A stretch of DNA of 48,797 bases from Minisyncoccia bacterium (lineage in GTDB: Bacteria; Patescibacteriota; Minisyncoccia; Phycocordibacterales; UBA9973). Shown here piece by piece: positions 4,330 to 48,721 of the stretch (the first letter of the stretch is position 1; the number at the start of each line of letters is the position of its first letter). The notes under the pieces were generated by a model that was not told the DNA's origin, did no database searches, and was given only the letters and a program-made list of their open reading frames with translations. The DNA is taken from the NCBI GenBank assembly GCA_038244685.1, contig JBBRTD010000004.1:1-48797 (forward strand), written 5' to 3'. A program made the position numbers and the translations under genes.

Positions 4330-5418
4330 CTACAAACCTTCTTCTTTAAGCTTCTCTATTATTTCCTTTGTTTTACGAGATAATTTATTTGGCATTTCTA
4401 CTTCAATGCTAATTATAATATCTCCACGGCCACGATTAGATGGCACTCCTTTGCCCTTAACTCGAAGCATTTCTCCATTATTAATACCTTCTGGTATTTT
4501 AACTTCTATTGATTTACCGTCTAATGTTTTTAAATTATAAGTCATTCCAAGAAGTGCATCTGTTAACTTTATTTTTAAATCCATCAATAAATTCTGGTCA
4601 TCTCGAGTGTAGATAGGATGTGATTTAACATTCATCTTTATATATAAATCCCCAGTTTCGCCCCCTTGTATGGCTTCTCCACTACCTCTAACTCGAAGAG
4701 ACTCTCCGTTATTAATTCCTGAAGGAATATTTATACTTATATCTTCATTAATTTTACGAACACCAGCTCCATGACATTCACTACATTTTTCAGATGGAAT
4801 TTTTCCAGTACCGAAACAGTTATCACACGCTCTGACTGTTTGAAAATTACCCAAGATTGAATGTCTAACTTCACGAACTTGTCCTTGTCCGTCACACGTC
4901 TTGCAAGTATTCATTTTAGCTCCTGGTTTACTACCAGAGCCACCACAAATATTACATGACGATTGTTTGTTTATTGTTACTTTTTTAACAGTTCCAAAAA
5001 TAGATTCTTCAAAAGATAAATTTATCTCTGTTGATATATCCCTACCTTTTTTTGTTTTTTGTTTGCGTCCACCGCCGAAGAAATCTCCAAAAATATCTCC
5101 TAAATCACCCATATCAAATTCCATTCCACCATTTTGACCAGTGAAATCAAAACCACCAAATCCACCTTGGCCTCCAAAACCACCACCCTGTCCACCAAAT
5201 CCTTGTGGTCCATCAGCATTTCCAAAGCGATCATAAGAAGATCTTTTTTTATCATCAGAAAGTACCTGATAAGCTTCATTTACTTCTTTAAACTTAGTAT
5301 CATCACCATTATTTTTGTCTGGATGATGAGTATGAGCAAGCTTATGAAAAGCCTTCTTCATTTCTTCTTTTGAAGCATTTTTATCTACTCCTAATATTTT
5401 GTAATAATCTTTGGGCAT
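4330..5418 (-). CDS. dnaJ: chaperone DnaJ
   Basis: J-domain with HPD (HHPDKN), a G/F-rich linker and four CxxCxGxG zinc-finger repeats. Confidence 0.96.
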
Positions 5419-5563: not shown

Positions 5564-7459
5564 TTACTTCTGTTCTGGGTTTTCATTAACCTCAGCGTCT
5601 TTTATTTCAGGCTCTTGAGTTTCTGGAGTTGGATTTTCTCCTTCTTTTGCAGACTCGCTATTTTTACTCATAGTTTCACCTATTTTAGACATTTCAGCGG
5701 ATAATTCTTCTGTAGCTTTTTTAATAGCTTCCATATCTGTACCCTCCTTGGACTTCTTTAAAGCAACTATCTTTGATTCTATTTCTGTTTTAATATCTAC
5801 TGTTACTTTATCTCCATAGTCTTTAACTGATTTTTCAGCAGTGAAAATCATCATCTCGGCTGTATTTTTTACATCGGCTAATTCTTTCTTCTTTGCATCT
5901 TCGTCTGCATGAGTTTCTGCTTCGTCACGCATTTTCTTTATTTCAGAATCAGTTAATCCTGAGCTTGCTTCAATACGAATAGATTGCTCTTTTCCGGAAG
6001 CCTTATCTTTAGCTTTAACATTTAAAATTCCATTCGCATCTACATCAAAGGTAACTTCCACTTGTGGAATTCCACGAGGTGATGGTGGAATACCGTCTAA
6101 TATAAATCTTCCAAGTGATTTATTATCAGAAGCCATTGGACGTTCACCTTGAGTAATATGAATCTCTACAGAAGTCTGATTGTCAGCAGCTGTTGAAAAT
6201 ATTTGAGATTTTGAAGAAGGGATTGTTGTATTTCTCTCTACTAATTTTGTTGCGACTCCACCTAATGTTTCAATACCAAGAGATAATGGAATAACATCAA
6301 GAAGGAGTACATCTCGAACATCACCTTGTAAAACTCCTGCTTGAACTGCAGCACCTAAGGCTACAACTTCATCTGGATTAATCGAACGGTTTGGCTCTTT
6401 TCCAAATAACTTTCTGACAGCATCAACGATTGCTGGCATTCTTGTCTGACCTCCAACTAAAATTATTTCATTAATTTCGCCCATCTTAAATGGAGAAGCC
6501 TCAATTGCACGTTTTGTAATTTCAATAGAACGAGTTACATACTCTTCAGATAGAGATTCTAAAACAGCACGAGACATTTTCAAAAGTAAGTGTTTAGGAC
6601 CTGATGCATCAGAAGTAATAAATGGGATATTTATTTCTGAATCCATTGTTGTTGAAAGTTCATGCTTTGTCTTCTCAGCAGCTTCTTTTAGGCGCTGAAG
6701 AGCTAACATATCAGTTGTGACATCGATACCTGATTCCTTTTTATATTCGTCTGCAATCCATCTGACCACCTTCTGGTCGATATCTTCTCCACCCATGTGT
6801 GAGTCTCCATCTGTAGATTTTACTTCTATAACATCGTCTCCAACTTCAAGAACTGAAACGTCAAATGTTCCTCCTCCAAAGTCATAAACAACTATTTTTT
6901 CATTTTTCTTTGTATTAAATCCATACGCAAGAGCAGCCGCTGTTGGCTCATTGATAATACGTTTTACATCAAGACCTGCAATTACTCCAGCATCTTTCGT
7001 TGCTTTACGTTGGGCATCGTTAAAATAAGCAGGAACAGTAATAACTGCTTCTGTAATTTTTTCACCTAGCTTTGCTTCTACATCTGCTTTAATCTTACTT
7101 AATATCATTGCAGAAATTTCTTCTGGTCGTAACCAAGAATCTCCAATCTTTGCTTCTACTCCACCATTTGCAGTTTTTTGAATTTTATATGGAATTGTTT
7201 TTTCATCTTTTTGAATTTCTGGATCATCATATAAGTGGCCAATAAAACGCTTAATACCATAAACTGTATTTTCTGGATTCGTCACAGCTTGACGTTTTGC
7301 AAGTAAACCAACCATTCTGTCACCATTTTTTGTAACAGTAACCACAGACGGCGTCGTACGAGCACCTTCGATATTTTCTATAATTTTTGGCTGACCACCC
7401 TCTATGATAGCCACTGCACTATTTGTTGTACCTAAGTCAATACCTATAATTTTACTCAT
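5564..7459 (-). CDS. dnaK: chaperone DnaK (Hsp70)
   Basis: 631 aa with [20 protein letters not shown] and VGGQTRMP motifs. Confidence 0.98.
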
Positions 7460-7511: not shown

Positions 7512-7566
7512 AGTATACACTTCCATTTATATTTTGACAAGTATTTAGCGACCGCAAAATACTTGT
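7512..7566 (-). promoter_or_regulatory. candidate dnaK promoter overlapped by a perfect 10-bp inverted repeat (operator candidate)
   Basis: On the minus strand, TTGTCA (7535-7540) is followed by a 17-nt spacer and then TATACT (7512-7517). The inverted repeat acaagtattt (7537-7546) / aaatacttgt (7557-7566) has a 10-nt spacer and covers the -35 box. Confidence 0.55.
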
Positions 7567-7597: not shown

Positions 7598-8155
7598 ATG
7601 TTAAAAAAGCCTTCAATTCAAAAGGCAATCCTAAAAATCCTTTCAAATAAAGGGGTTACTCCTGTCGAATCAATTAAAAAACACGTCAATGACGCTGTTT
7701 TAGCTGAGCCTGAGGCTCTTAACAAGAGAAGTTATGCTATTTCTCGTTCAATTAAGAATATGCTTGGAGATGGTCTTGTAGAAGCCCTTAATTCTGACAA
7801 CAAACAATATATAAGACTTACAAAAGAAGGAAAACAAAAATTAAACAACATTGCACTTGAATGCGAATCAAGCCTTGTTTCAACATCTTGGGATAATTAT
7901 TGGAGAATAATACTTTTAGATATTCCAGAAGATAGAAAAAATGAAAGAGAGGCATTGCGATATCTACTTAAGAAAGCAGGATTTGTATGTTTAAAAAATT
8001 CTGTTTGGATTTCCATGTACCCTTTTGAACATTTATTTACAAATATTAAAAAAGATTTAAATTTATCAACAGAATTAATAATTATAGTAACAGATAAAAT
8101 AGACGAGGAAACAGAAAAAGAATTTTTATTACTATGTGAATCTAGTTATAAATAA
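7598..8155 (+). CDS. PaaX-like winged-helix transcriptional regulator (short form)
   Basis: 185 aa. The N-terminal wHTH-like segment is ILKILSNKGVTPVESI. It is followed by WRIILLDIPEDRKNEREALRYLLKKAGFVCLKNSVWIS, which matches the PaaX-family pattern (W..v.f..PE..R..R..Lr..L...GF..l..gvWi.P). Two TGTATAAT extended -10 boxes lie upstream at 7564-7571 and 7583-7590. Confidence 0.6.
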   Translation: MLKKPSIQKAILKILSNKGVTPVESIKKHVNDAVLAEPEALNKRSYAISRSIKNMLGDGLVEALNSDNKQYIRLTKEGKQKLNNIALECESSLVSTSWDNYWRIILLDIPEDRKNEREALRYLLKKAGFVCLKNSVWISMYPFEHLFTNIKKDLNLSTELIIIVTDKIDEETEKEFLLLCESSYK

Positions 8156-8180
8156 AAAATAGAGCGATGCTCTATTTTTT
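8154..8180. terminator. bidirectional intrinsic terminator
   Basis: The stem tagagc (8160-8165) pairs with gctcta (8169-8174). An A-run lies upstream and a T-run downstream. Confidence 0.75.
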
Positions 8181-8189
8181 ATTTATATA

Positions 8190-11100
8190 CTATTGTTTTA
8201 ATTCTGATATTATTTCTTGATCAGGACTAGAGACTTCTACATCTGAAACTATGTCCTTAGGTAATGGCAATACTTCAAATTCTGAACCTATTTTTTTATC
8301 TGTAGGTGTTTCTTCAGGGGTGACACCATTGTTACTCGGTTGCAATAGAAGATTTGTTGAATCAATATTTGTAACAGCAGGAACAAGTGGTGTTACAATT
8401 TGAGGATTAGAAACATTCGGTACTTCGTTTAATATTACTTTCTCTTCACCGCACTTCCCTTTTTGTTTATTAAATTCCCCATTAGTTATTAATACACAAT
8501 ATGATTCACCTGTTACACTATCTTTCATCTCTATACCTTCCGTTATAACAGTTTTTACAAATATTTTATCAATTCTATTGTATTCATCTTCCAAGAAGCT
8601 TTTTATTAAATATCCTAAAGATGTAGACTTGGTTGTATCTAATGATGATAAATCTTTAATATTCAAATTCATCTCCTGAATTGCTTTAACTAAATAAGGA
8701 GTAATATTTGCATAACTAATTGATTTAAGTTTTAATCCTGTTGTTGGATCAATATTAATATCTGTGGAAACTAAATCTGGAAATATTTGTTCCATTTCTT
8801 GAGCTATGAAACCTACATGCTTAGCATCACCATTATTTTCATTATTCCAATTATAGACTACTGGAGTAAGATAACTTAATTTATCTAAGGTAGACTTATT
8901 ACTTGTATCAAGCATATTATTTAAAATAAATTCTTTTCCTTCTAATGTTAAAATATTCTTTTTTAAATTTATATCTGATGAACAAGTAAGTGATGTAGTA
9001 ATTGGATTTATATCACAGTAACCGGTACTACTTCTAAAGCGAGCAACAACACCAGAAACTGTATTGTTCCCTACTTCAAGTAAATAACCTGGTGAAGATA
9101 CCCCAATTCCAACTTTACCAGCATAATATGAATTTGATAATGAACCAGAATATATTGCAAATTTTGTAGTACCAACATCAATTGATGACCCTAAGTATAT
9201 TCCATATGAAGTATTTATTGTACCTGCATTTGACCAAACATCTCCTGGTCCTCCTAGGGAAAGACCGTAAATAGTGCCTATTGTAGAACCAGCAGCATTT
9301 GCAACTGACGAGCTATAATTTTTTGCTGTTGTAATAGTACCACCACCTGAATTAATTATATTACTAAAACTTCCCCAAGCATTTGAAACCAGACCTGTCG
9401 AAGTATTTTTAATTCCAGCATCAATTCCATATGCAGTAGTAATAGTACCAACTCCAAAATTTTCTGTATATGACTGAGTTGCTCTTGAGTCTGTAATTAA
9501 TCCATTCCCTTCATTATCCACATAATTACCCGAACCAATAGCAGAACCAATAGTTCCACCTGCATAATTATCTACTAGTGCATCAATTGCTCTTCCTCGA
9601 GTTATCGTTCCCCCGGCATCATTATAAACATAACTTCCAGTACCTAATCCTTGGGTTATTGTTCCATTTGAGAATAAATCAACCGATGACTGTGACCCTG
9701 TCGCTTGATCTAAAATTCCAGTTCCATAATCTGAAATCATAGATTGAGATCCCTTAATATTTCCAACCATATCACTTGCATTCGTTGCAGGTATCTCTAT
9801 TGCCCCTATCATTCCATATTTATTTGTAGTAATTGGTCCATTCAATAATAAATATGCAGCTGCGCCAGTATTTTTATTTCCAGCATCAGCTCCTATTGTT
9901 TGAGATGAAACTAAGTTTGGAATATATGTCGTACCATCTATTAAAGATAAAGTTCCAGCGATTGCATTATTTCCAGTCGCAACATTACCAGTATTAAAAT
10001 TAATATTACTACCTGATGTAGTCCACTGAGAACTTACCCCTGGCACTGTCCAAGTTAACAATCCGTTTCCATTATTAGACAAAATAGTACCTACACCTCC
10101 TTGAATTGAAGGCAGCGAATAATCAACTCCTCTTAGTTGCATTTCTGTAATAGAAGGAGCTAGCATAAACTGATTAGCCTTGTTGTTTGAAATTTGAGAA
10201 TTAAAAACTCCACTTCCAAGTAAAATAGAATTTGAATGACCTCCCGTATTAATAAATGAACCAATGAGAATAGACGATAGCCCGTTTGAAGTATTATCAA
10301 CTGTATCATTGTAACCAGCTTCACGTCCAATAAAAATAGAGTTAGCTGCATTAGTTGCTAAATAGCCAGTATTATAACCAATAAAGTTTGATCCTTGAGC
10401 ATTTGTTGATCTATAACCAGAGTAAGATCCAATAAAATTTGAGTTCATCGCATTCGTTGCCTGAGCACCAGAACCTTGCCCAAAAAAGTTTGAACTCGAA
10501 GCATTTGTCGCAGAATTTCCTGCATTATTACCAATAAAATTTGAATATGAAGCACTAAAGGCAGAATCACCAGCACTAAAACCGAGGAATGTAGAACCAT
10601 GTGTCGAAGTTACTCCATTACCAGCTTGGTTAGAAGAATTTGAAAAAAGATTTGTATTATTAACTAAATCAATAGTTGATTGCTGATCTAACTGATAACG
10701 AGCTCCTCCATTTATAGCAGAAAAATATAAATGTGAACCATCATATTCAACAGCACCAGCTTCAGATGTTCCTAATTTTGGACCACTGGTAAATTTAAGT
10801 GGAGCCGTACCTGCTGTTGCAGTACCAGCTTTTAAATTAAGTACCGCTGTTGGATTTATAATTCCAAGACCCATATTCCCAGCAAAATAATTTTGACCAC
10901 CCGCAGAATATAATGAATAATTTAGAGTTGCACCTTGAGATTGATTTTCAATATACAAACCATAATCATTTGAAATAGTTCCAGCAACTGGCCCATCAAT
11001 ATAGGTACCATAATAATTTGTTGTATTTCCACCAGTAATAGAATCCGCACGAGCCCATAAGTTTATAACCTTAGCAACAGTTCCATTGGTAACAGTTGGG

Positions 11101-12674
11101 CGACCCATAATTGCATTAAAGAAATTTGTAACTGATGCTCCTACATTATTTATCATCGGAACCCCTTCTATCCCATACATTGCATTTATTGATATAGGAG
11201 TAGAAATAGAAGATAAACTATATACACCTCCAACTGAACCAGTTGTATTCTGCTCACCATATCCACCGAAAATACCAGCAACAATTGAAGAATTTGCACC
11301 GCTGGTTGCAAGATGAGCTTCAATATTATCACCATAATAATTACTTGAAACTGAACCAGTATAAGTTCTTGCTCCGGAAATCATAGAGCGACTTTGTTGT
11401 GGAATCACACTCCAAACATTAATTCCAGAATTTGTATTTATCATTCCATTTATATCTAAAGTAAAGCCAGGAGTTGTTGTCCCTATTCCTACTCTATGGT
11501 TTACGCTATCAACAAATAAAGAATTTGTATCAACCGTTAAATTATGAATGCCTAAATCAACATTTGAAGTTGCTCCTGTGTAAGGTATACCACTAGATGA
11601 AGGAGTAGACCAAGACAAAACACCACTTCCATTATTTGTAAGAACGGTATTTACACTACCTTGAGATAATGGCAGTGAATAATCTATTCCCCTCAATCTC
11701 ATTTCTGTAATAGAAGGAACTAACATAAATTGATTAATTTTTGTGTTTGAAATTGGGGCACCAGATATACCACTACCAAGTAAAATTGAATTCGAAAAAC
11801 CTCCTGTATTTGTAAATGAGCCCAAAAGAATTGAAGAAAGTCCATTAGAAGTATTGTCTACAGTATCACCATTTCCAGCATTTTGACCAATAAATATTGA
11901 ATTGGCAGCATGCTGCGCATTAAAACCAGCATTATTACCAAAGAAATTTGAATTAGAAGCATAAATTGCATTGCGACCAGCAAAATAACCAAAGAAGTTT
12001 GAATTCTCTGCAATTAAAGCTTGATAACCAGCATACGAACCAAAGAAGTTTGAATTTGAAGTCAATAAAGTATTATAGCCAGTATAAACACCAAAGAAAT
12101 TTGAACCAATAGATTCAGCCACATTCCGACCAGCCCCTAGACCAATAAAATTTGAATTAGAAAGATCACCTGTTGAATTTTCACCAGCATATGGGCCAAG
12201 AAAAATAGAATTTGTTGTACTTACTGTTACCCCCGAAGCTGTTCCAGGTAATCCAGTAGAGAAAAGATTTGATGAATTAACAATTGAGATTGGAGAAACA
12301 GATGCCATTGTCCAACTAGGGGCAAGATTTGTGCCATTAGACGTAAGAACTTGTCCTGCTATTCCATTAGGAAGTTTATCTGTTGTGTCAGAGCTAGACT
12401 GATAAAGTATTTGCCCTCCTAACCCCCCTGCTATATTTGCAGCTGTTCCAGTAGTATTTTGATTAAAGATTGGAAAGCTTGTTAATTGAGATGCTGAACC
12501 TGTGGGTGTTAAAAAGTTAAAAGCAACAGTGCAACCAGTATCTAAAGGAGCGCAGTTTGGATCTATTGTCTGACCAGGAGTAAACAAAGCAAAAATCTTG
12601 GCATATGCGCCAAAAAGTAGAACAAAAAATAATATTGCTAGAAATTTAATTAATATCGAATTTGAATATTTCAT
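8190..12674 (-). CDS. giant secreted tail-fibre-like surface protein with an internal duplication and a C-terminal-region S74-type intramolecular chaperone domain
   Basis: 1494 aa. The N-terminal hydrophobic signal or anchor is ILIKFLAILFFVLLFGAYA. It carries SNFFG/SNFIG-xxAG repeat arrays, VGIGxxxP collar motifs (three copies) and GGTIT-type repeats. The segment SDINLKKNI...HVGFIAQEMEQIFPDLV resembles the endosialidase chaperone domain. Confidence 0.85.
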   Translation of the reverse strand: MKYSNSILIKFLAILFFVLLFGAYAKIFALFTPGQTIDPNCAPLDTGCTVAFNFLTPTGSASQLTSFPIFNQNTTGTAANIAGGLGGQILYQSSSDTTDKLPNGIAGQVLTSNGTNLAPSWTMASVSPISIVNSSNLFSTGLPGTASGVTVSTTNSIFLGPYAGENSTGDLSNSNFIGLGAGRNVAESIGSNFFGVYTGYNTLLTSNSNFFGSYAGYQALIAENSNFFGYFAGRNAIYASNSNFFGNNAGFNAQHAANSIFIGQNAGNGDTVDNTSNGLSSILLGSFTNTGGFSNSILLGSGISGAPISNTKINQFMLVPSITEMRLRGIDYSLPLSQGSVNTVLTNNGSGVLSWSTPSSSGIPYTGATSNVDLGIHNLTVDTNSLFVDSVNHRVGIGTTTPGFTLDINGMINTNSGINVWSVIPQQSRSMISGARTYTGSVSSNYYGDNIEAHLATSGANSSIVAGIFGGYGEQNTTGSVGGVYSLSSISTPISINAMYGIEGVPMINNVGASVTNFFNAIMGRPTVTNGTVAKVINLWARADSITGGNTTNYYGTYIDGPVAGTISNDYGLYIENQSQGATLNYSLYSAGGQNYFAGNMGLGIINPTAVLNLKAGTATAGTAPLKFTSGPKLGTSEAGAVEYDGSHLYFSAINGGARYQLDQQSTIDLVNNTNLFSNSSNQAGNGVTSTHGSTFLGFSAGDSAFSASYSNFIGNNAGNSATNASSSNFFGQGSGAQATNAMNSNFIGSYSGYRSTNAQGSNFIGYNTGYLATNAANSIFIGREAGYNDTVDNTSNGLSSILIGSFINTGGHSNSILLGSGVFNSQISNNKANQFMLAPSITEMQLRGVDYSLPSIQGGVGTILSNNGNGLLTWTVPGVSSQWTTSGSNINFNTGNVATGNNAIAGTLSLIDGTTYIPNLVSSQTIGADAGNKNTGAAAYLLLNGPITTNKYGMIGAIEIPATNASDMVGNIKGSQSMISDYGTGILDQATGSQSSVDLFSNGTITQGLGTGSYVYNDAGGTITRGRAIDALVDNYAGGTIGSAIGSGNYVDNEGNGLITDSRATQSYTENFGVGTITTAYGIDAGIKNTSTGLVSNAWGSFSNIINSGGGTITTAKNYSSSVANAAGSTIGTIYGLSLGGPGDVWSNAGTINTSYGIYLGSSIDVGTTKFAIYSGSLSNSYYAGKVGIGVSSPGYLLEVGNNTVSGVVARFRSSTGYCDINPITTSLTCSSDINLKKNILTLEGKEFILNNMLDTSNKSTLDKLSYLTPVVYNWNNENNGDAKHVGFIAQEMEQIFPDLVSTDINIDPTTGLKLKSISYANITPYLVKAIQEMNLNIKDLSSLDTTKSTSLGYLIKSFLEDEYNRIDKIFVKTVITEGIEMKDSVTGESYCVLITNGEFNKQKGKCGEEKVILNEVPNVSNPQIVTPLVPAVTNIDSTNLLLQPSNNGVTPEETPTDKKIGSEFEVLPLPKDIVSDVEVSSPDQEIISELKQ
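8655..8978 (-). other. Peptidase_S74-like intramolecular chaperone / autoproteolysis domain within the giant ORF (aa 1233-1340)
   Basis: The segment reads SDINLKKNILTLEG...LSYLTPVVYNWNNENNGDAKHVGFIAQEMEQIFPDLVSTD...ISYANITPYLVKAIQEMN. This follows the SDxxxK...GfiAQE...P..V pattern of endosialidase and tail-spike chaperone domains. Confidence 0.7.
10047..10673 (-). repeat. intragenic protein-level repeat, copy 2 (aa 668-876 of the giant ORF)
   Basis: See copy 1. The nucleotide sequences differ at many synonymous positions, so the duplication is old. Confidence 0.9.
11607..12284 (-). repeat. intragenic protein-level repeat, copy 1 (aa 131-356 of the giant ORF)
   Basis: It aligns without register change to aa 668-876, exactly 520 aa downstream. 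Example: DTVDNTSNGLSSILLGSFTNTGGFSNSILLGSG versus DTVDNTSNGLSSILIGSFINTGGHSNSILLGSG. Confidence 0.9.
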
Positions 12675-12782
12675 TAAATATTAAACTGATTACCAATGCT
12701 TTAATTTTATCACAAATGCAAATTTACTCAAGGTAATTTTTTAAATTTATTCCATAATTTATGGTTATATTTTAAAAAAGAA

Positions 12783-13451
12783 TTATTTTTTATACTCGTA
12801 TATATTAACTCTTGCTGGGCGGATTATTCTGTCTCCTATTTTATACCCAACCTGCAAAATGCTCTCTATTGTATGATCTTGCTCTTCTTTTTCTGTCAAA
12901 ATAGCACTTATAGATTGATGCAGGTTTGGATTAAAAGACACCCCTATTTCACTTATCTTTTCAATGCCAGATTCAGACAAACTAGTCATAAATTGAGAAT
13001 AAATATATTCAATACCCATACGCCAATTTTTATCAACTTTTTCCCAGGCCTCTTTATTTGCAAATGCCATATCAAAACTATCAAGAACTGGTAATAAATT
13101 CTTGGCCATTTTTTCCCTAGAATGAATTGATATATTTAGACGGGAACTATCAAGTTCTTTTTGTAAATTAACATAGTCAGCCTTAGCTCTCTGCCATCCA
13201 GTTAAATATTCTTCTTTTTCACTTCTGCAAATCTTTAAATCTTCACGAAGTTTTTTTGTTACATCTTTTGCGGGTAATGCTTCACCATCTTCAGTACTGT
13301 CTACATATGTTATATCTGGCTCAACAGAAAAATCTGAATTATCAATCACAGGATTAACCATAGGCTCATCTAGATCTATGGATTGATCTTTTGCAATTTC
13401 TCCATCTATATTTGAAGTTTCATTTATTTTTTTTATTTCTTCGTCATTCAT
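12783..13451 (-). CDS. grpE: nucleotide exchange factor GrpE
   Basis: It has a coiled-coil region plus a conserved C-terminal beta domain (VGYKIGDRIIRPARV). I start it at the ATG at 13451, because the ORF-track start at 13466 would leave only a few nt after the rpsI terminator hairpin (13471-13493). Confidence 0.9.
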   Translation of the reverse strand: MNDEEIKKINETSNIDGEIAKDQSIDLDEPMVNPVIDNSDFSVEPDITYVDSTEDGEALPAKDVTKKLREDLKICRSEKEEYLTGWQRAKADYVNLQKELDSSRLNISIHSREKMAKNLLPVLDSFDMAFANKEAWEKVDKNWRMGIEYIYSQFMTSLSESGIEKISEIGVSFNPNLHQSISAILTEKEEQDHTIESILQVGYKIGDRIIRPARVNIYEYKK

Positions 13452-13463
13452 TCCTACAGTATA

Positions 13464-13498
13464 CAAAAAAAAGAGACTTTTTCAAAGTCTCTTTTTTT
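13464..13498 (-). terminator. intrinsic terminator after rpsI
   Basis: The stem aagagacttt (13471-13480) pairs with aaagtctctt (13484-13493). The A-run on the plus strand gives a U-tract on the minus strand. Confidence 0.7.
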
Positions 13499-13508
13499 AA
13501 AAAACATA

Positions 13509-13919
13509 TTAACGTTTAGACCATTGTGGAGATTTACGAGCTTTTTTAAGTCCAAATTTCTTTCTTTCAACAACTCTAGGATCACGCTTAAGCATTTTAG
13601 CTTTCTTTAGGTTTGTACGTAGTTCTGCATCAAATAATACTAAAGCACGTGAGATACCATGACGAACTGACTCAGCTTGTGCATGTGATCCACCACCTTT
13701 TGTAGTAACTACAACTTCAAATTTCTCTGAAGGTGTTGCTGTCTCAAAGGCACCAGTAACTATTTTCTTTAATTCAGGTGTTGGAAAATATTCAGTAAAA
13801 TCTTTTCCATTAACTGTATAAGTAGTCTTAGTTGCTTTATATAAACGAACTACAGCAACTGCTGTCTTACGACGGCCGATAGCTCTAAAATATTCTTTTG
13901 TTGGTTTCTTTTCTGCCAT
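13509..13919 (-). CDS. rpsI: 30S ribosomal protein S9
   Basis: 136 aa with GGGxxxQAxAxRHGIxRAL and a C-terminal KKxxxSKR. Confidence 0.96.
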   Translation of the reverse strand: MAEKKPTKEYFRAIGRRKTAVAVVRLYKATKTTYTVNGKDFTEYFPTPELKKIVTGAFETATPSEKFEVVVTTKGGGSHAQAESVRHGISRALVLFDAELRTNLKKAKMLKRDPRVVERKKFGLKKARKSPQWSKR

Positions 13920-13922
13920 ATA

Positions 13923-14276
13923 TTATTCTGTTATTGTTAAACGTTTCATCATTAAAGGACGTAATTTATTTGAAGGAAGCATTCCAAAAACAGCAAGTTC
14001 ATAAAGACCCATCCAACCCTTTTTCTCTATAACTTTCTCATTTGTCTTTGTTTTAAATCCTCCTGGAAATCCTGAGTAAGTCTCATGTAAAGTTTCTTTC
14101 ATTCTTCTCTCAGACATTTTTGTCTTTGATGCATTTTTAATATAAACACGAACATCAGCTACTTTATTTGCTGTGTAATCTGCTGATGTTTTACCCATAA
14201 GAGCCTTGGCAGCTGCACTTGCAACACGGCCTAATATCTTATCTGTAGCATCAATTGTATGTACTATTGTTGTCAT
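13923..14276 (-). CDS. rplM: 50S ribosomal protein L13
   Basis: It contains IDATDKILGRVAS...GK, typical of L13. I start it at the ATG at 14276, since the ORF-track start at 14294 is a TTG overlapping rplQ. Confidence 0.9.
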   Translation of the reverse strand: MTTIVHTIDATDKILGRVASAAAKALMGKTSADYTANKVADVRVYIKNASKTKMSERRMKETLHETYSGFPGGFKTKTNEKVIEKKGWMGLYELAVFGMLPSNKLRPLMMKRLTITE

Positions 14277-14661: not shown

Positions 14662-15636
14662 TTATTTAAGTGTTATACCATATTCTCCAAGAACTTTCTT
14701 TATTTCTTGAATTCCCTTATCTCCAATTCCATCAATCTCAAGCAAATCTTCCTTCTTTTTTCTTGCTATTCCTCCAATTGTTCGGATATTTGCATCTGTT
14801 AATGCATTAAGAGTACGGGTAGAAAGTGTCAGTGTATCGATTCTTGTTTTTAAAATATCTGTAAATTCATTCCCTTCTCCTTTATCTTCATCTAATTCTT
14901 TGTTTGAAACATCAACAGCTTCAATAATTGGTAAAGATTTGTTTGTGACAGTAAAACCAATGATTGCTTGTAACTGTTCTACCATGATAACAATTGATTT
15001 CTCAAGAGCTTCACGAGGAGTTAGAGTTCCATCAGTCTCTATAGTCATACGTAGACGGTTATGGTTTGTCTTATCTCCAACACGCATGTTCTCAACTTCA
15101 TAAGCAACACGACGAATAGGTGTAAAAATAGCATCCAAAGAAATAGTTCCTACTTCGTTCTTTTCTTTTTGGTGAACATCCTTAGGAACAAAACCAAGAC
15201 CTTTCTCTACTGTCATTTCAATAGAAAGATTAGTTTTTGTTGTGACTTCAGCGATGAATAAATCTTTATTTAAAACTTCTACTTGTCCACTTACTTCTAT
15301 ATCAGCAGCAGTTACAGTCTTAGGTCCTTTTATTGAAAGTTTAACTGTTTGAGGTTCATCTGTTAACAAACGAAAACGAACTTGCTTTAAATGTAGCAAG
15401 ATAGTAATAACATCTTCTTTAACTCCATCCATAACTGAAAATTCATGATCTACTCCATCTATTTTAAGAGATGTAATAGCTGAACCAGATAGTGAAGAAA
15501 GAATAATGCGGCGAAGAGAGTTCCCTAGAGTATGTCCATACCCAGGGTAAAGGCCATCAATTTCATAGACACCCTTTGTGCCTACTTCTGAAACGATAGA
15601 TAATTTTGATGGTAATATGATATTTAAATCAGACAT
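14662..15636 (-). CDS. rpoA: DNA-directed RNA polymerase alpha subunit
   Basis: 324 aa. It has an N-terminal assembly domain (GHTLGNSLRR) and a C-terminal alpha-CTD HhH (LSTRTLNALTDANIRTIG). Confidence 0.96.
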   Translation of the reverse strand: MSDLNIILPSKLSIVSEVGTKGVYEIDGLYPGYGHTLGNSLRRIILSSLSGSAITSLKIDGVDHEFSVMDGVKEDVITILLHLKQVRFRLLTDEPQTVKLSIKGPKTVTAADIEVSGQVEVLNKDLFIAEVTTKTNLSIEMTVEKGLGFVPKDVHQKEKNEVGTISLDAIFTPIRRVAYEVENMRVGDKTNHNRLRMTIETDGTLTPREALEKSIVIMVEQLQAIIGFTVTNKSLPIIEAVDVSNKELDEDKGEGNEFTDILKTRIDTLTLSTRTLNALTDANIRTIGGIARKKKEDLLEIDGIGDKGIQEIKKVLGEYGITLK

Positions 15637-15695
15637 ATGATATTTACGAGTGCACTCGCAATAAATTATTTATTAAAATTAACCATACGGCTCTA

Positions 15696-16304
15696 CTAAC
15701 GACTATAAAATTCAAGCACAGTGTTTAAATCAAGGTAACCTTCAATATTTTTAGGTTTACCAGCAATTGTTCCAGATAGTTTTTCAGCATTAAATGTAAG
15801 CCAGTTTGGAGCTGTATATTCTTTCATCTTCTTGTCCATATCAGCAAATAAGACACTCTTCTTACTACCTTCACGAACAGAGATTACATCTCCTACTTTC
15901 ACACGTAAAGAGGCAACAGTTGTCTTCTTTCCATTAACAGTAAAATGTCCATGAGAAGCCATTTGACGAGATAGACGACGAGTATGAGCTAATCCTAATC
16001 TGTAAGCAACGTTATCAAGTCTTGTTTCAAGTAACTCAAAAAGAGCTTCAGTTGCAATAACTCCCTTAGAAGAAACAGCTTCTTTGACATAGTTTGAAAA
16101 TTGCTTTTCACTTATGTTGTACATAAAACGAACTTTCTGTTTCTCTACGAATTGAAGAGCATAGCCAGAAAGAGCTTTAGGTCGCTTGTTCTTCATGTTC
16201 TTTGCATGACGTCCTTCAGATGCAACGAATTTAGCTGTTTGACATTTTTCAAACACTCCTGGTCCTAATCTTCTACAAATTTTATATTTTTGAACTGTTT
16301 TCAT
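15696..16304 (-). CDS. rpsD: 30S ribosomal protein S4
   Basis: 202 aa with an S4 domain (RLDNVAYRLGLAHTRRLSRQ). Confidence 0.95.
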   Translation of the reverse strand: MKTVQKYKICRRLGPGVFEKCQTAKFVASEGRHAKNMKNKRPKALSGYALQFVEKQKVRFMYNISEKQFSNYVKEAVSSKGVIATEALFELLETRLDNVAYRLGLAHTRRLSRQMASHGHFTVNGKKTTVASLRVKVGDVISVREGSKKSVLFADMDKKMKEYTAPNWLTFNAEKLSGTIAGKPKNIEGYLDLNTVLEFYSR

Positions 16305-17680: not shown

Positions 17681-19036
17681 TTATTTAAAAAGAATATTTA
17701 TATTTTTCACTTCATTTGGTAGTTTTGATGACCAAAATGGAATAATACTAATAGAAGCAGAAGAAATTCCTGGGTCTAGTTTAAAAATAGCTGGTACTTC
17801 ATTCTTGTTTTTACCAATAAGTAACCCCTTTAATTCATCTACATTGGGCTTCCAGTTAATAATCAAATTGCCGCTTAATTCAAAATTAAAATTTTCAATA
17901 TCCTTACTGATAGCTTGACCTTTATCTGCGAAAGAGAAAGTTAGCTTTGATAAATCAGGTGGTAAAATTTCAGATTTTTCCTTGTCGGATATGTCTGGTA
18001 ATAATTTATTTATAAGAAAATTTGATAAATCAGTTTCTTTAAATAAAAATGTTGAAACGGTACTTTTTATTTCTATTTTTTCAACTGGAGTTTTCGAAGT
18101 AATATTTTCGCTAAATTCATACACAAAACTAACTCCGTCTGGGTAATATATATAACCTTCGGGTATTTGAGCCGACAATTTACGGAGTAATCTTTCATTT
18201 AGGGCAGTAGTATCAGAGATAATTCCCTCTTTTTCTTTATCATCTAAAACATAAACAAGTCCTGCTACTCCACCAGAAAGAGGAGTTTTAATCTTCCCGT
18301 ATATTTTTTCATATTTAGTTGTGCCTTTATATGAATTTATATAAAAAGAATCCGGGGACCCGTTGTAAGTATCACCAGAAAGAAATGCAGTAATTTTTAC
18401 CGGAATTTGTCCTGGAATAATCTTTGAATTATCTTTTGTAAGTGCAGGGATAGTAACTGTTGTATCGGTTTTATACGATTTACCTTTATCGTCTGAAATA
18501 AAAGTACCAGCTGATATCTTTTGAGGTTTAGTACTATATTCATTATATAAAGTTATTTCACCCTTTGCTTTATCGGAAGCATTCAAAGTAGTAGTTAAAA
18601 CTACGTCTTTTGTCTCTACATCAGGAACTATCATGACTTCAAATGGGACATTGGTCGTTTTGAATTTACCGGCAGTAAATTTCTGACTACTTAAATCAAA
18701 AGATTTGACCTTTGGTATAATTGTTACTTTCGCCTTAAAAAAAACAGTAGATAATAAGTAAATAGAACCAGCAATTATTAATAATAAAACAAAAGCTGCA
18801 AATTTCTTACCAAAATTACTATTACTACTCGGCATCTTAGGGGTCTGGGGAATTCTTTGAGTAAATGATTCAGTATTTTTATTTATTTTCTTTAAAAAAT
18901 CATATTTAGTAGAATTTTCTGGGGGAATATATGTGTTTATATAACTAGGCGCAATCTTTTTAGGAATATCTTCTTTTGGTATTGTTATTACTTTATTGTT
19001 ATTTAATTTAATGTCTTCAATTTTTTTTCTATTCAT
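17681..19036 (-). CDS. hypothetical single-pass membrane protein with a large extracytoplasmic beta-rich domain
   Basis: 451 aa. The TM segment is FAAFVLLLIIAGSIYLLSTVFF, about 80 aa from the N-terminus. Its start overlaps the upstream ASKHA gene by 8 nt. I do not recognise a family with any confidence. Confidence 0.6.
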   Translation of the reverse strand: MNRKKIEDIKLNNNKVITIPKEDIPKKIAPSYINTYIPPENSTKYDFLKKINKNTESFTQRIPQTPKMPSSNSNFGKKFAAFVLLLIIAGSIYLLSTVFFKAKVTIIPKVKSFDLSSQKFTAGKFKTTNVPFEVMIVPDVETKDVVLTTTLNASDKAKGEITLYNEYSTKPQKISAGTFISDDKGKSYKTDTTVTIPALTKDNSKIIPGQIPVKITAFLSGDTYNGSPDSFYINSYKGTTKYEKIYGKIKTPLSGGVAGLVYVLDDKEKEGIISDTTALNERLLRKLSAQIPEGYIYYPDGVSFVYEFSENITSKTPVEKIEIKSTVSTFLFKETDLSNFLINKLLPDISDKEKSEILPPDLSKLTFSFADKGQAISKDIENFNFELSGNLIINWKPNVDELKGLLIGKNKNEVPAIFKLDPGISSASISIIPFWSSKLPNEVKNINILFK

Positions 19037-33892: not shown

Positions 33893-35014
33893 CTATTGTA
33901 CCTCAAATGGAAAAATATCTGAAAGCTCTCCTGAATAATAAAATTCATAAGAAAGACCACCAAAAGTATAATCTCTATCACTAATTGTAATAGTAGAGCC
34001 TCCAACTTCTGGATTTTCTTTTGGAACTGATTTATTAAAACCTAAATTAAACAATGTCGCTAATACTTCAGGGCGATCATTTATAGGATAATTACTTGTC
34101 TCCCATTGATGCATTATCTGCTTTAAAAATATTGCAGTATACAAATAAGAGTAATAGTGATTTTTATTATCAGTTAATCTACCCATTAGTTCAGTATTTG
34201 GATCTCTATCTCCGTAATTAAAAATATCTTCATGGTCAGCTCCTAAGTAAAATGGACTATTCTTATCTTTTAAATTACTTTCAATAACTTTCGCTGTTTC
34301 AACTTTAACTCCAGCTACCCCATAAGAAAACTTAGTCCCATTTCCAAGAACTTTTAATGGTTCAAAATACTTCTTATATGATTCACGATTAGCAGTAAAA
34401 AATCTAAACTGTTCAGAGATTACCGTTGAAACTATTATTCGAGCAGGAACTCCTGAATCACGACTAGCTTGCAGAATAACATCCTTATCTTTTACAAGAG
34501 CATCTCTTAATGTCTCCCATTCTGGAGATGACATCCAGCTAAAAATACTTTGGCTGGTTAAATTATTATTTAAAGCAAGAATTCCATTACCGATTTCATC
34601 ACACTTGTCCATTTTATCTTTCAAGAAAGAATTATTATTGGCAGTAACTATAATAATTGCATTAACCATTTTCTCTGCAACAACAGTAGATTTAGTTGTT
34701 ATATATGAATCCAAAATTCTTTGACCGTTTTCTGGTAAGACAGAAGCAATCGTCATAATCTTACACTCAAGGCTTGGACTTAATTTATTTAAATTTGTAA
34801 GAGTTGCCGTCTTCTTAATATTTGGCAAACGAGTTCCATCTTTTTTAATGTTATTAAAAAATTCGTTTCGTGAATCAATACTTCCTTTTACATCAGTTAG
34901 ATGCAATCTCATAGCAACAAAAACAGCAGAAAAGACTAATCCTACTCCTGCAAAGCCACAAACGACTACAATTAATATAATTTTCAATAATTTCTTGTTT
35001 TTAAATATTTTCAT
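33893..35014 (-). CDS. hypothetical N-terminally anchored extracytoplasmic protein
   Basis: 373 aa. The TM segment is LLKIILIVVVCGFAGVGLVFSAVFVAM. It begins 1 nt after the mreB stop. I do not recognise a family. Confidence 0.6.
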   Translation of the reverse strand: MKIFKNKKLLKIILIVVVCGFAGVGLVFSAVFVAMRLHLTDVKGSIDSRNEFFNNIKKDGTRLPNIKKTATLTNLNKLSPSLECKIMTIASVLPENGQRILDSYITTKSTVVAEKMVNAIIIVTANNNSFLKDKMDKCDEIGNGILALNNNLTSQSIFSWMSSPEWETLRDALVKDKDVILQASRDSGVPARIIVSTVISEQFRFFTANRESYKKYFEPLKVLGNGTKFSYGVAGVKVETAKVIESNLKDKNSPFYLGADHEDIFNYGDRDPNTELMGRLTDNKNHYYSYLYTAIFLKQIMHQWETSNYPINDRPEVLATLFNLGFNKSVPKENPEVGGSTITISDRDYTFGGLSYEFYYSGELSDIFPFEVQ

Positions 35015-46780: not shown

Positions 46781-46865
46781 AATTTTTAACACCTATTTCA
46801 TATAGGTATTTTGTAATGACCCAATAAGATATTTTTATGATTTGGAATCTGATATAATAATGCAC

Positions 46866-47384
46866 ATGATATATAAAAGAATAATAATTCTAGGAGGTAG
46901 CGGTTCCGGAAAATCTACCTTAGCGAATAGAATTAGTTTGTATACAGGTTATCCTATTCATCATCTAGATAATATACTTTTAAATTCAGATTGGTCTCAA
47001 AAAGAAAAAAGTGAATGGTTAAATATCTGTAAAAAAGAATTTCTTTCCGAAGATACTGGTGTTATAGATGGTAATTATTCGTCTGTGCTTAATGAAAGAA
47101 TAGAATGGGCAGATTTAATAATTTTTATAAACGTGCCAACTCTTCGCCATCTGTTTAATATATTTAAAAGATCACTTTTGGTTAATCTAGGATTAGAGAA
47201 AAGATATGGAATGGAAAAAGGAAGAAAAGATACAGTCGATTTAAAATTTTTTAAGTGGGTATTAAATTGGAATAGAGGTCATAAAAAGGAAATGCTAAAC
47301 TTATTGGGATCAATAAAAAACAAGAGAATTATTGTAACAAATAGTCCTAGAAAGTTAAACATTGAAAAGCTACTAAATGAGTAA
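46866..47384 (+). CDS. P-loop NTPase, adenylate-kinase/topology-modulation (FlaR-like) family
   Basis: It begins MIYKRIIILGGSGSGKSTLANRIS (Walker A). I start it at the ATG at 46866. The track start at 46842 is a TTG, and an ATG at 46860 is also possible. Confidence 0.7.
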   Translation: MIYKRIIILGGSGSGKSTLANRISLYTGYPIHHLDNILLNSDWSQKEKSEWLNICKKEFLSEDTGVIDGNYSSVLNERIEWADLIIFINVPTLRHLFNIFKRSLLVNLGLEKRYGMEKGRKDTVDLKFFKWVLNWNRGHKKEMLNLLGSIKNKRIIVTNSPRKLNIEKLLNE

Positions 47385-48208: not shown

Positions 48209-48721
48209 TTATTCAACTACAACAAGAATATAATGACGATGGTCATAAAAAAAATCTCCGTTTACTTTATGAATGTTGAGAATACGGTCAACACCACAAA
48301 CTCCCAAACTAACTGCAATACTATCTGCACCAAATATACGATTACGATACCAAAGCGAACCAATACACAATATTTGTTCCTGATATTGAAAAAGTGGATG
48401 ACTTTTTCCAAAAGTTAATAGTTCAGCTAAATTCGCAAGTCTATTACCTTTTTTGTAAATTGACTGAATTACACGATCAAAACAATGATATGTACCAAAT
48501 TGTTCTTCAGATTTAATAATCGATGCTATTACACGAACAATGTCGTCAGTTTGCCCAAATGGTTTTATTACTGGAAAATTAGTAGAATTAATACTATTGT
48601 CTCCGTATTCATAGTGACCATCCTTTATCATTTCATCAAGAGATTTACTGTAATCAACAGTCAAATCGAATTCCATCTCTGTATTGAAAATTTTAGATTT
48701 TAATTTCTCTTCTGTTTTCAT
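48209..48721 (-). CDS. hypothetical protein
   Basis: 170-aa ORF with no recognisable motif. Confidence 0.5.
   Translation of the reverse strand: MKTEEKLKSKIFNTEMEFDLTVDYSKSLDEMIKDGHYEYGDNSINSTNFPVIKPFGQTDDIVRVIASIIKSEEQFGTYHCFDRVIQSIYKKGNRLANLAELLTFGKSHPLFQYQEQILCIGSLWYRNRIFGADSIAVSLGVCGVDRILNIHKVNGDFFYDHRHYILVVVE

Follow-up and report, generated by a model that had tools for sequence, protein, structure and literature searches.

The question raised by this locus is why a gene for a giant protein resembling a phage tail fibre should stand between grpE and dnaK in a bacterial genome. The window, that is the whole stretch of DNA analyzed (48,797 nucleotides, contig JBBRTD010000004.1 of assembly GCA_038244685.1, from a Minisyncoccia bacterium of the Patescibacteriota), contains at 8190..12674 of the minus strand an open reading frame (ORF) of 1494 residues (aa) which, as the ORF list and its translation confirmed, lies between these two genes on their strand. 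It is referred to below as the fibre gene. Little is known of how the ultra-small, host-dependent Patescibacteria locate their partner cells and stay attached to them, and the fibre is a candidate for host recognition. Its product is read here, with a probability of roughly 0.6, as an exported, trimeric, phage-type surface fibre which is autocleaved at Ser1233 and used for cell attachment. The gene is chromosomal and does not encode a virion tail fibre, since neither its genomic context nor the N-terminus of its product is that of one.

The chaperone domain and the export leader

The C-terminal part of the fibre was assigned by homology searches. PF13884 (Peptidase_S74) matched aa 1233-1302 with an E-value of 3.7e-12 (46.8 bits against a cut-off of 22), and position 1 of the Pfam model falls on Ser1233, the first residue of the motif S1233-D-I-N-L-K1238 (SDxxxK). 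The Ser-Lys dyad of SDxxxK defines the autoprotease (PMC10769870). S1233, D1234 and K1238 were invariant in 30 aligned homologues, as were C1220 and C1231, which precede the cleavage site. A profile constructed from the alignment of 30 homologous C-terminal regions was searched against PDB, giving matches to a putative tail fibre (8jov, E 1.4e-14), the long tail fibre of phage S16 (6f45, E 1.3e-11), MyRF (7dc3, E 3.6e-7), the neck appendage of GA-1 (3gud, E 8.4e-5) and the L-shaped fibre of T5 (8hqz, E 0.0038). Matches to chains of the mosaic adhesive trimer (MAT) fibres of Bdellovibrio were marginal (8ond, Bd2133, E 0.0068, located on the collar; 8ojn, E 0.055). The Pfam match, together with the profile matches to tail-fibre and MyRF chaperone domains (E 1.4e-14 to 8e-5), bears out the assignment of aa 1233-1340 to S74 made in the original prediction.

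In the AlphaFold2 (AF2) monomer the predicted local distance difference test score (pLDDT) was above 90 over most of the S74 domain and 85-97 at model residues 51-160, with a helix at 145-164. The top Foldseek matches of this model were 7dc3 (E 0.009, probability 1.00, template modelling score 0.52 on the target) and 3gw6 (E 0.3), the E-values being weak because the solved S74 domains are intertwined trimers. Among 50,697 phage records, matches were confined to approximately aa 1130-1340 of the fibre, at about 27-35% identity, and a PHROGs search returned only one family of unknown function, on the S74 region. Comparison of the whole fibre with NCBIfam gave no match, a single-sequence search of PDB with the whole protein gave nothing significant, and an exact-sequence look-up found no record.

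A homologue search with the full fibre retrieved 457 proteins at E<=1e-5, and the counts for regions and motifs given here refer to 119 or 120 of these members; homologous proteins and related loci are cited by P and L numbers. From the N- to the C-terminus, the following features were identified:

8190..12674, minus strand: fibre gene, 1494 codons plus stop, ATG start
12582..12674, minus strand: hydrophobic leader with A-Y-A, aa 1-31 (best 19-residue Kyte-Doolittle window 2.51)
12525..12581, minus strand: Cys loop PGQTIDPNCAPLDTGCTV with C41 and C48, aa 32-50 (conserved motif)
12285..12524, minus strand: N-terminal region, aa 51-130, with the first GQVLTSNG...SW motif (aa 107-121); defined by sequence, common to 20 of 119 homologues
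11607..12284, minus strand: module A, aa 131-356, with seven 17-aa SNFxG repeats, an ILLGS/NQFML segment and the VLTNNGSGVLSW motif
10674..11606, minus strand: middle region, aa 357-667, with VGIGTTTP (395), MGLGIINP (601) and a conserved segment AGTAPLKFTSG...EAGAVEYDGSHLYF
10047..10673, minus strand: module B, aa 668-876, with six 17-aa repeats and the C-terminal segment of module A
9180..9773, minus strand: 18-aa GTIT repeat, about 11 copies, aa 968-1165 (autocorrelation peaks at lags 18 and 36)
8979..9122, minus strand: VGIGVSSPGYLLEV collar and Cys1220...Cys1231 loop, aa 1185-1232, ending at the predicted cleavage site
8640..8978, minus strand: Peptidase_S74 chaperone/autoprotease domain, aa 1233-1345, with the dyad S1233...K1238 (Pfam, alignment, PDB profile and AF2)
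8445..8639, minus strand: post-chaperone domain, a helix and a beta-hairpin with C1393/C1408, aa 1346-1410 (AF2 pLDDT about 80)
8193..8444, minus strand: low-complexity Val/Pro/Glu-rich tail, aa 1411-1494 (predicted disordered, pLDDT below 50)

The signal- or anchor-like N-terminus proposed earlier was recovered in the hydropathy profile, with A-Y-A following the hydrophobic stretch, and based on its sequence the leader would be either a Sec-type signal peptide or a signal anchor. A comparable N-terminal hydrophobic stretch was present in 85 of 120 family members. The Cys loop that follows recurs as P-G-x-T-L-D-P-x-C...C within the first 120 aa of 37 of the 120 and occurs as well in the fibres found between grpE and dnaK in L017, L022, L024, L028 and L170. 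A homologue search with the N-terminal 122 aa alone gave nothing significant. The only cysteines of the fibre, six in all, are three closely spaced pairs (41/48, 1220/1231 and 1393/1408), an arrangement in keeping with export and short disulfide loops, and 45% of its residues are Gly, Ser, Asn or Thr.

At the C-terminus the pattern C[STAG]SD..[LF]K was found in 76 of 120 family members and the S74 domain in 89 of 119. Some 150 residues with the pair Cys1393/Cys1408 do follow the chaperone domain, as had been noted, and end in a tail enriched in Val, Pro and Glu. This extension is a family trait, because most members have 165-333 residues after the S74 serine. The post-chaperone domain, for which Foldseek gave no structural match, is common to 18 of 119 homologues, including P0002, P0003, P0006 and P0036, which occupy the same chromosomal slot. 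At least two alternative Cys-containing post-chaperone domains were visible by eye among the C-termini of the family, and the Val/Pro/Glu-rich tail was matched by none of the 119 homologues compared.

Repeat modules

Modules A and B had been described as one unit occurring twice, exactly 520 aa apart and built of 10-12-aa repeats. The duplication is confirmed, with 133 of 266 residues identical (50%, E 2e-67) between aa 121-386 and aa 660-906, but the offset is 520 aa only in the last 115 aligned residues and shifts to 537-539 towards the N-terminus, and the true period is 17 aa. SNFFG/SNFIG repeats, of the form SNFxG-xx-AG, begin at 174, 191, 208, 225 and 242 and again at 711, 728, 745 and 762, and autocorrelation peaks at lags 17 and 34. 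Synonymous codon changes were found at 66 of the 133 identical residues. The rate of synonymous substitution (dS) between the modules was 1.18 and its ratio to the non-synonymous rate (dN/dS) 0.38; over aa 256-356, dN was 0.19 and dS 1.33. Judged by these codon comparisons, the modules are an old duplication under purifying selection, in agreement with the view that the duplication has been held at the protein level.

In the AF2 model of the module, short strands recur at intervals of 17 residues in a solenoid-like manner, the pLDDT of the repeats being 77-88. No match to the module was found in Pfam, NCBIfam or PDB, including a profile search of PDB, and no significant PDB match was obtained with the model. 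Against BFVD, which contains predicted structures of viral proteins, the model gave weak matches (E 0.012 or more), mostly to phage tail-fibre, Mtd N-terminal-domain and S74 proteins.

The remaining regions are less widely distributed in the family than the 17-aa module, which was detected in 112 of 119 homologues. The middle region is common to 14 of 119, is absent from the orthologue P0003 and had no sequence match in PDB. GGTIT-type repeats of about 20 aa had been placed at aa 1000-1170; the repeat exists, with a period of 18 aa and a span of aa 968-1165. Common to only three of the 119 homologues, it is, on this distribution, a putative lineage-specific stalk adjoining the tip, and no PDB match was found to the 18-aa repeat and tip region. 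Three VGIG-xxx-P collar motifs had been listed, two of which are exact (395 and 1188) while the third is the variant MGLGIINP at 601. The pattern G-x-[VI]-L-[TS]-x-N-G-x4-[SW]-W, said to occur three times, matches nowhere as written, but three approximate copies of GxVLTxNG...W are present: GQVLTSNGTNLAPSW at 107, NTVLTNNGSGVLSW at 342 and GTILSNNGNGLLTW at 862.

These results bear on whether the protein might digest polysaccharide more than adhere to it, acting as a glycan-degrading enzyme like the tailspikes, either secreted or kept at the surface: a beta-helix depolymerase matured by its S74 domain. Endosialidases were the first proteins on which S74 domains were described, and the phage proteins matched by the fibre include some annotated as hyaluronidase or endo-N-acetylneuraminidase. 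The sole PDB fold matches of the module model were right-handed beta-helix proteins, at E-values above 5 which are far below significance, and GDSL esterase domains were found in the family members P0065 and P0097. No catalytic domain was detected in the fibre itself in searches of Pfam, NCBIfam, PHROGs and PDB, however, and its regular 17-aa and 18-aa repeats resemble a stalk and not the core of an enzyme. We therefore regard a glycan-degrading function as unlikely.

Chromosomal context and the grpE-dnaK slot

The fibre gene closes a long one-strand array comprising rpsM, rpsK, rpsD, rpoA, rplQ, rplM, rpsI and grpE. Its immediate surroundings are as follows:

12783-13466, minus strand: grpE (PF01025, E 9e-35)
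12704..12731, minus strand: promoter-like site TTGAGT-16-TAAAAT with TG, in the 108-nt spacer between grpE and the fibre gene (consensus scan only)
8147..8187: palindromic terminator-like hairpin with a 19-pair stem, between the convergent fibre and PaaX-like genes (scan)
7598-8155, plus strand: gene for a PaaX_M-type helix-turn-helix protein of 185 aa (PF20803, E 1.2e-19), between the fibre gene and dnaK
5564-7459, minus strand: dnaK (from its translation; HSP70 was found in orthologues)
4330-5418: dnaJ, beyond dnaK and downstream of the fibre gene

The flanking grpE and dnaK had been recognized before, but the PaaX_M-type gene on the opposite strand had been overlooked. The gene had also been credited with a terminator and promoter of its own. 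The promoter-like site and the hairpin agree with this, but the scan found no terminator-like site in the spacer between grpE and the fibre gene, so that read-through from grpE is possible. The GC content of the fibre gene (0.27-0.36) is within the range of the window and the flanks; a compositional anomaly of the kind left by recent insertion was sought in it and none was seen. GC skew, considered as a sign of a replication origin, was not adopted, as it tracks gene orientation in the window.

Elsewhere the window encodes MnmA, YceG, a sigma factor, BipA, an M50 protease, a DNA polymerase III delta-type subunit, MreB, PriA, YbeY, FtsA, FtsZ, a thioredoxin-reductase-type flavoprotein, phosphoglycerate mutase and three tRNAs. 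All identified genes are housekeeping genes, the scanned ORFs covering most of the window. As had been noted for the flanks, no phage gene and no intact prophage was found, either among these ORFs or in the syntenic relatives L001 and L002. The syntenic loci L001, L002 and L170 carry ribosomal, chaperone and amino-acid metabolism genes.

A scan based on GrpE, with one genome per species, gave 80 related loci labelled Candidatus Nomurabacteria, Paceibacteria/Paceibacterota, Patescibacteria group, Minisyncoccia and, in some cases, "uncultured Candidatus Saccharibacteria". These labels place the bacterium of the window among the Patescibacteria (CPR), as an organism of the Candidatus Nomurabacteria type. 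In most of the loci no fibre gene is present: grpE and dnaK are about 620-1100 bp apart and enclose only a PaaX-like gene on the reverse strand. Of the related loci with both grpE and dnaK on the contig, nearly all have the PaaX-like gene between the two. Based on this comparison, the arrangement without a fibre is the common and probably ancestral one, which supports the earlier description of the gene as inserted in the grpE/dnaK locus.

The slot between grpE and the PaaX-like gene holds a fibre at no fewer than eight loci: the window, L001, L002, L170, L022, L024, L017 and L028. In L001 and L002, whose DnaK is 96% identical to that of the window, the fibres have 1199 aa (P0002) and 1040 aa (P0003), and the order rpsI-grpE-fibre-paaX-dnaK-dnaJ is preserved in these two and in L170. 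The slot of L170 (P0006) contains a 324-aa leader ORF and a 2372-aa ORF. The fibres of L022 (1445 aa), L024 (953 aa) and L017 (1261 aa), like those of L001, L002 and L170, have the leader and S74 domain seen in the window. In L028 (10676-20610) the slot is filled by two tandem giant genes of 960 and more than 2309 aa, the first of which has the leader, while the second contains dozens of GNVGIGTTSP collar motifs and extends past the fetched locus. The slot fibres thus range from 953 to more than 2300 aa.

Differences between close relatives involve whole segments. Relative to the fibre of the window, P0002 is without aa 53-362, and P0003 has a single, longer module and is without roughly aa 386-672. 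The slot fibres are also mosaic, the S74 domain being closest to members outside the slot and the post-chaperone domain being common to members in it. Their distribution is patchy: fibres are present at 96% and at 86-87% DnaK identity and absent at 88-93%. This may reflect either ancestral presence with repeated losses or repeated insertion.

Among more distant relatives, in a clade whose DnaK is 76-79% identical, the slot contains one to four tandem paralogues of approximately 550-595 aa. Cysteines are very abundant in these proteins, and apart from treble-clef-like zinc ribbons at their ends no Pfam match was found. They lie between grpE and the PaaX-like gene, in L058 at 10575-14045 and also in L063-L065, L067, L068, L073, L074, L078 and L082. 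Since this clade fills the slot with Cys-rich proteins instead, the slot is a hotspot for variable genes.

On the dnaK side of the slot, a perfect inverted repeat, ACAAGTATTT-N10-AAATACTTGT, was observed at 7537-7566 of the window, where it overlaps the -35 element of a promoter-like site of dnaK. Its core, AGTATTT-N10-AAATACT, was found in 15 other loci (L003, L004, L006, L009, L012, L016, L027, L038, L042, L046, L048, L050, L054, L070 and L079), lying between the PaaX-like gene and dnaK where coordinates were compared, and in these loci the PaaX-like gene is divergent from dnaK. The PaaX-like protein and the inverted repeat look like a heat-shock repressor and its operator which would replace HrcA and CIRCE in this group.

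The 17-aa module was also detected in contigs of IMG/VR, with 123 confirmed stretches. Two adjacent module proteins of L085 (7067-11515), neither with a signal peptide, are encoded after a portal-like gene in an array that runs in one direction. The portal match is weak (phrog_156, E 7e-5); L085 probably represents a phage whose tail fibres share modules with cellular fibres, and the module is then probably common to cellular fibres and real phage fibres. Two other IMG/VR candidates were not used. L128, reported to contain a 96% identical segment, has no DNA similarity to the window and was set aside, and L083 is doubtful as a phage, with six proteins lacking a PHROG match and a module protein which has a signal peptide.

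With these contigs in view, the fibre might be taken for nothing more than the tail fibre of a phage, encoded in a prophage or its decaying remnant, the more so as S74 is typical of phage fibres and is matched, at about 32% identity, by tail-fibre genes from phage isolates. The flanks, however, are rpoA, ribosomal protein genes, grpE, dnaK and dnaJ, and a hydrophobic export leader stands in place of a virion-attachment N-terminus; Mtd_N of Pfam, present in the homologue P0101, was not detected in the fibre at E<=1. The slot is filled in several different species, and the gene does not stand out from its flanks in GC. An origin of this kind is largely refuted and scarcely credible.

A different connection to phages would be a phage-tail-like particle encoded elsewhere in the genome, such as a tailocin, an extracellular contractile injection system or a gene-transfer agent. 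Such particles use tail fibres, and a weak Foldseek match was obtained to chain 7aef_q of the Algoriphagus contractile injection system (E 1.5). Against this, no sheath, tube or baseplate genes were found in the approximately ten genomic contexts examined, and the export leader points to Sec export of a single protein, which makes a particle-borne fibre very improbable.

A family of cellular fibres and their proposed function

Far from being a one-off, the fibre belongs to a very large and apparently unstudied family whose members are already labelled "tail fiber domain-containing protein" (in metagenome-assembled genomes of Candidatus Paceibacterota, Nomurabacteria or unclassified bacteria) or "hypothetical protein" (Patescibacteria group bacterium). 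A profile of the 17-aa module matched 14,172 representatives of 50%-identity clusters at E<=1e-3, 6,138 at 1e-10 and 1,424 at 1e-30, in proteins of up to 4,953 aa. With no Pfam, NCBIfam or PDB counterpart, the module constitutes a large annotation blind spot. In one member, P0007, the called protein is fused to an EF-Tu-type GTPase domain. The word "domesticated" implies transfer from phage to cell; as the module is hugely expanded in databases, where its named members are all Patescibacteria proteins, and also occurs in putative phage contigs, transfer may have gone in either direction.

Where the contig measures 0.2-0.8 Mb, the family members are chromosomal and often stand beside core operons, in the same direction. 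Fibres of the family precede rpsL-rpsG-fusA and occur again after fusA in L163 (5742-14872), and they lie on both sides of the tuf-rpsJ-rplC...rpsL block in L164 (10001-23498). A second recurrent slot consists of a short M50-type peptidase, an S74 fibre and a CarboxypepD_reg-like protein (about 580-660 aa), followed by rpsL-rpsG-fusA; it was found in both L165 and L166 (9309-14340) and on the contig of P0005. Further fibres were located after rpoB-rpoC-dnaG-rpoD (L168), after pyk-hpf (L167) and near dsbB/dsbA (L169). Many genomes have several copies beside highly expressed core operons, an observation made without a statistical baseline in small genomes that are rich in such genes. The placement raises the question of how regulator-poor genomes express their surface proteins.

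The closest characterized system is the S74 subgroup of the Bdellovibrio MAT proteins. MAT proteins form fibres on the cell surface, and several were localized to the prey-invasion vesicle or the bdelloplast (PMC10769870). Thirteen of the 21 MAT fibres end in an S74 domain with SDxxxK, and cleavage of Bd3182 was shown experimentally (PMC10769870, Caulton et al. 2024). MAT fibres and the fibre described here are both chromosomal, in bacteria that live (for the present one, probably) on other bacteria, with an N-terminal export signal (predicted for the fibre from its hydrophobic leader), a long repeat-built body, mosaic exchange of tips, multiple paralogues and an S74 terminus carrying SDxxxK. 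The collars may also be comparable: the MAT capping loop is V-G-G/N-pi-x-x-P-x-x-x-L (PMC10769870) and that of the fibre VGIGxxxPxxxL, its collar motifs VGIGTTTPGFTL (395), MGLGIINPTAVL (601) and VGIGVSSPGYLL (1188) having one more residue before the proline.

The two systems differ in several respects. Bdellovibrio is a diderm predator of bacteria, whereas the fibre belongs to a Patescibacteria bacterium. In MAT proteins the conserved N-terminal part is a beta-rich domain of about 130 aa, in the fibre a short leader and a Cys loop some 20 aa long. Nothing corresponding to the 17-aa SNFxG module was seen in the solved MAT structures, and the invariant Cys pair before the cleavage site and the approximately 150 residues after the chaperone domain set the fibre apart. 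Outside S74, sequence similarity to MAT proteins is marginal.

Phage fibres with such a chaperone (K1F endosialidase, 3GW6; T5 pb1, 4UW8/8HQZ; S16, 6F45; GA-1, 3GUD) have the homologous domain, the Ser-Lys dyad and a repeat stalk on its N-terminal side. In contrast to them, the fibre gene is not in a phage genome, its product has an export leader and the domain is not at the extreme C-terminus; similarity to isolated phages is restricted to the S74 region. The ICA domain of MyRF (7DC3), the best Foldseek match, is an instance of the domain in a cellular protein and not in a virus. MyRF is a transcription factor of eukaryotes, bound to the membrane, and its cleavage frees the DNA-binding part and does not mature an extracellular fibre. 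The trimeric autotransporter adhesins of the YadA type are likewise repeat-built and rich in Gly, Ser, Asn and Ala, and the homologues P0025 and P0114 were labelled "trimeric autotransporter adhesin" by JGI. Neither the YadA-type C-terminal anchor nor Hep_Hag repeats gave a Pfam match in the fibre at E<=1, and with no YadA anchor it is not a trimeric autotransporter. The polarity is also opposite, the export or anchor signal of the fibre being N-terminal and its trimerizing element C-terminal.

Based on these comparisons, the following route is proposed. The hydrophobic leader would pass the chain through Sec and serve at least as a transient membrane tether. The chaperone at aa 1233-1345 would then bring three chains into register and nucleate the folding of the Gly/Ser/Asn/Thr-rich stalk, which would comprise the two 17-aa-repeat modules, the 18-aa-repeat region and the VGIG collars. 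A tether at the N-terminus would be needed during trimerization from the C-terminus because there is no outer membrane and no periplasm to confine unfolded chains, which favours the leader as at least a transient anchor. Next, the Ser1233/Lys1238 dyad would cut before Ser1233, freeing a C-terminal fragment of 262 residues and exposing the Cys1220-Cys1231 loop as the distal tip. The mature fibre would project from the cell and bind surface structures of a partner or host cell, and whole modules would be gained, lost or exchanged to vary its specificity. Trimerization from the C-terminus and self-cleavage by S74 domains were demonstrated for the phage K1F endosialidase, the T5 L-shaped fibre and Bd3182 (PMC10769870). 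For the fibre, we infer both from its homology with these proteins, and attachment to a partner cell from lifestyle and analogy; of the two, maturation has the good support.

Three observations weigh against this route. The repeat module is without a significant structural match. The S74 domain is not the extreme C-terminus, with 149 further residues after aa 1345. Lastly, the tip-proximal collar and Cys loop are conserved and not variable, which is unexpected in a specificity determinant.

Conservation near the tip would better suit a structural or protective fibre of the envelope, acting as a spacer, a coat or a decoy for phages and binding no specific partner, and the very large family with several copies per genome beside highly expressed operons would fit an abundant envelope component. 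Whole modules, however, have turned over between genomes with 96% DnaK identity, which is the pattern of recognition proteins under diversifying pressure, and the nearest characterized cellular relatives, the Bdellovibrio MAT fibres, are prey-recognition proteins. A purely structural role is accordingly given only a minor chance of being correct.

The reading as an attachment fibre can be extended to the group, in a form that is tentative and rather doubtful: Patescibacteria would recognize hosts and partners chiefly by S74-matured fibres of a very large family which shuffle cassettes in conserved slots beside core operons, exchange modules with the phages of these bacteria and carry a family-specific C-terminal extension for tethering or release. 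The extension, a Cys mini-domain with a disordered tail, would on this equally tentative proposal hold the nascent trimer at a surface without outer membrane until autocleavage. If the fibres are attachment devices, their modular variation would give a sequence-level handle on host range in an almost entirely uncultured group; if true, this would be comparable to reading the host range of phages from their receptor-binding proteins.

A literature search found no paper linking Patescibacteria with S74 or tail-fibre-type proteins. Cellular S74-capped fibres and the database-labelled family were already known, and what is new here is a cellular S74-capped fibre variant in Patescibacteria.

Some further observations concern genes outside the slot. 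Five ORFs of the window, encoding 170-451 aa, had no Pfam match at E<=1e-5:

17681-19036, minus strand: adjoins the FtsA-like gene and is conserved in L002
26764-28065, minus strand
33893-35014, minus strand
46842-47384, plus strand
48209-48721, minus strand

In L001, the closest relative, a gene for 2280 aa with a leader and many YTSxDxGxTW repeats of the BNR/sialidase type was identified at 14989-16183, 9 kb from the fibre gene. Its product is a different kind of giant surface protein, and the corresponding position falls just past the left edge of the window.

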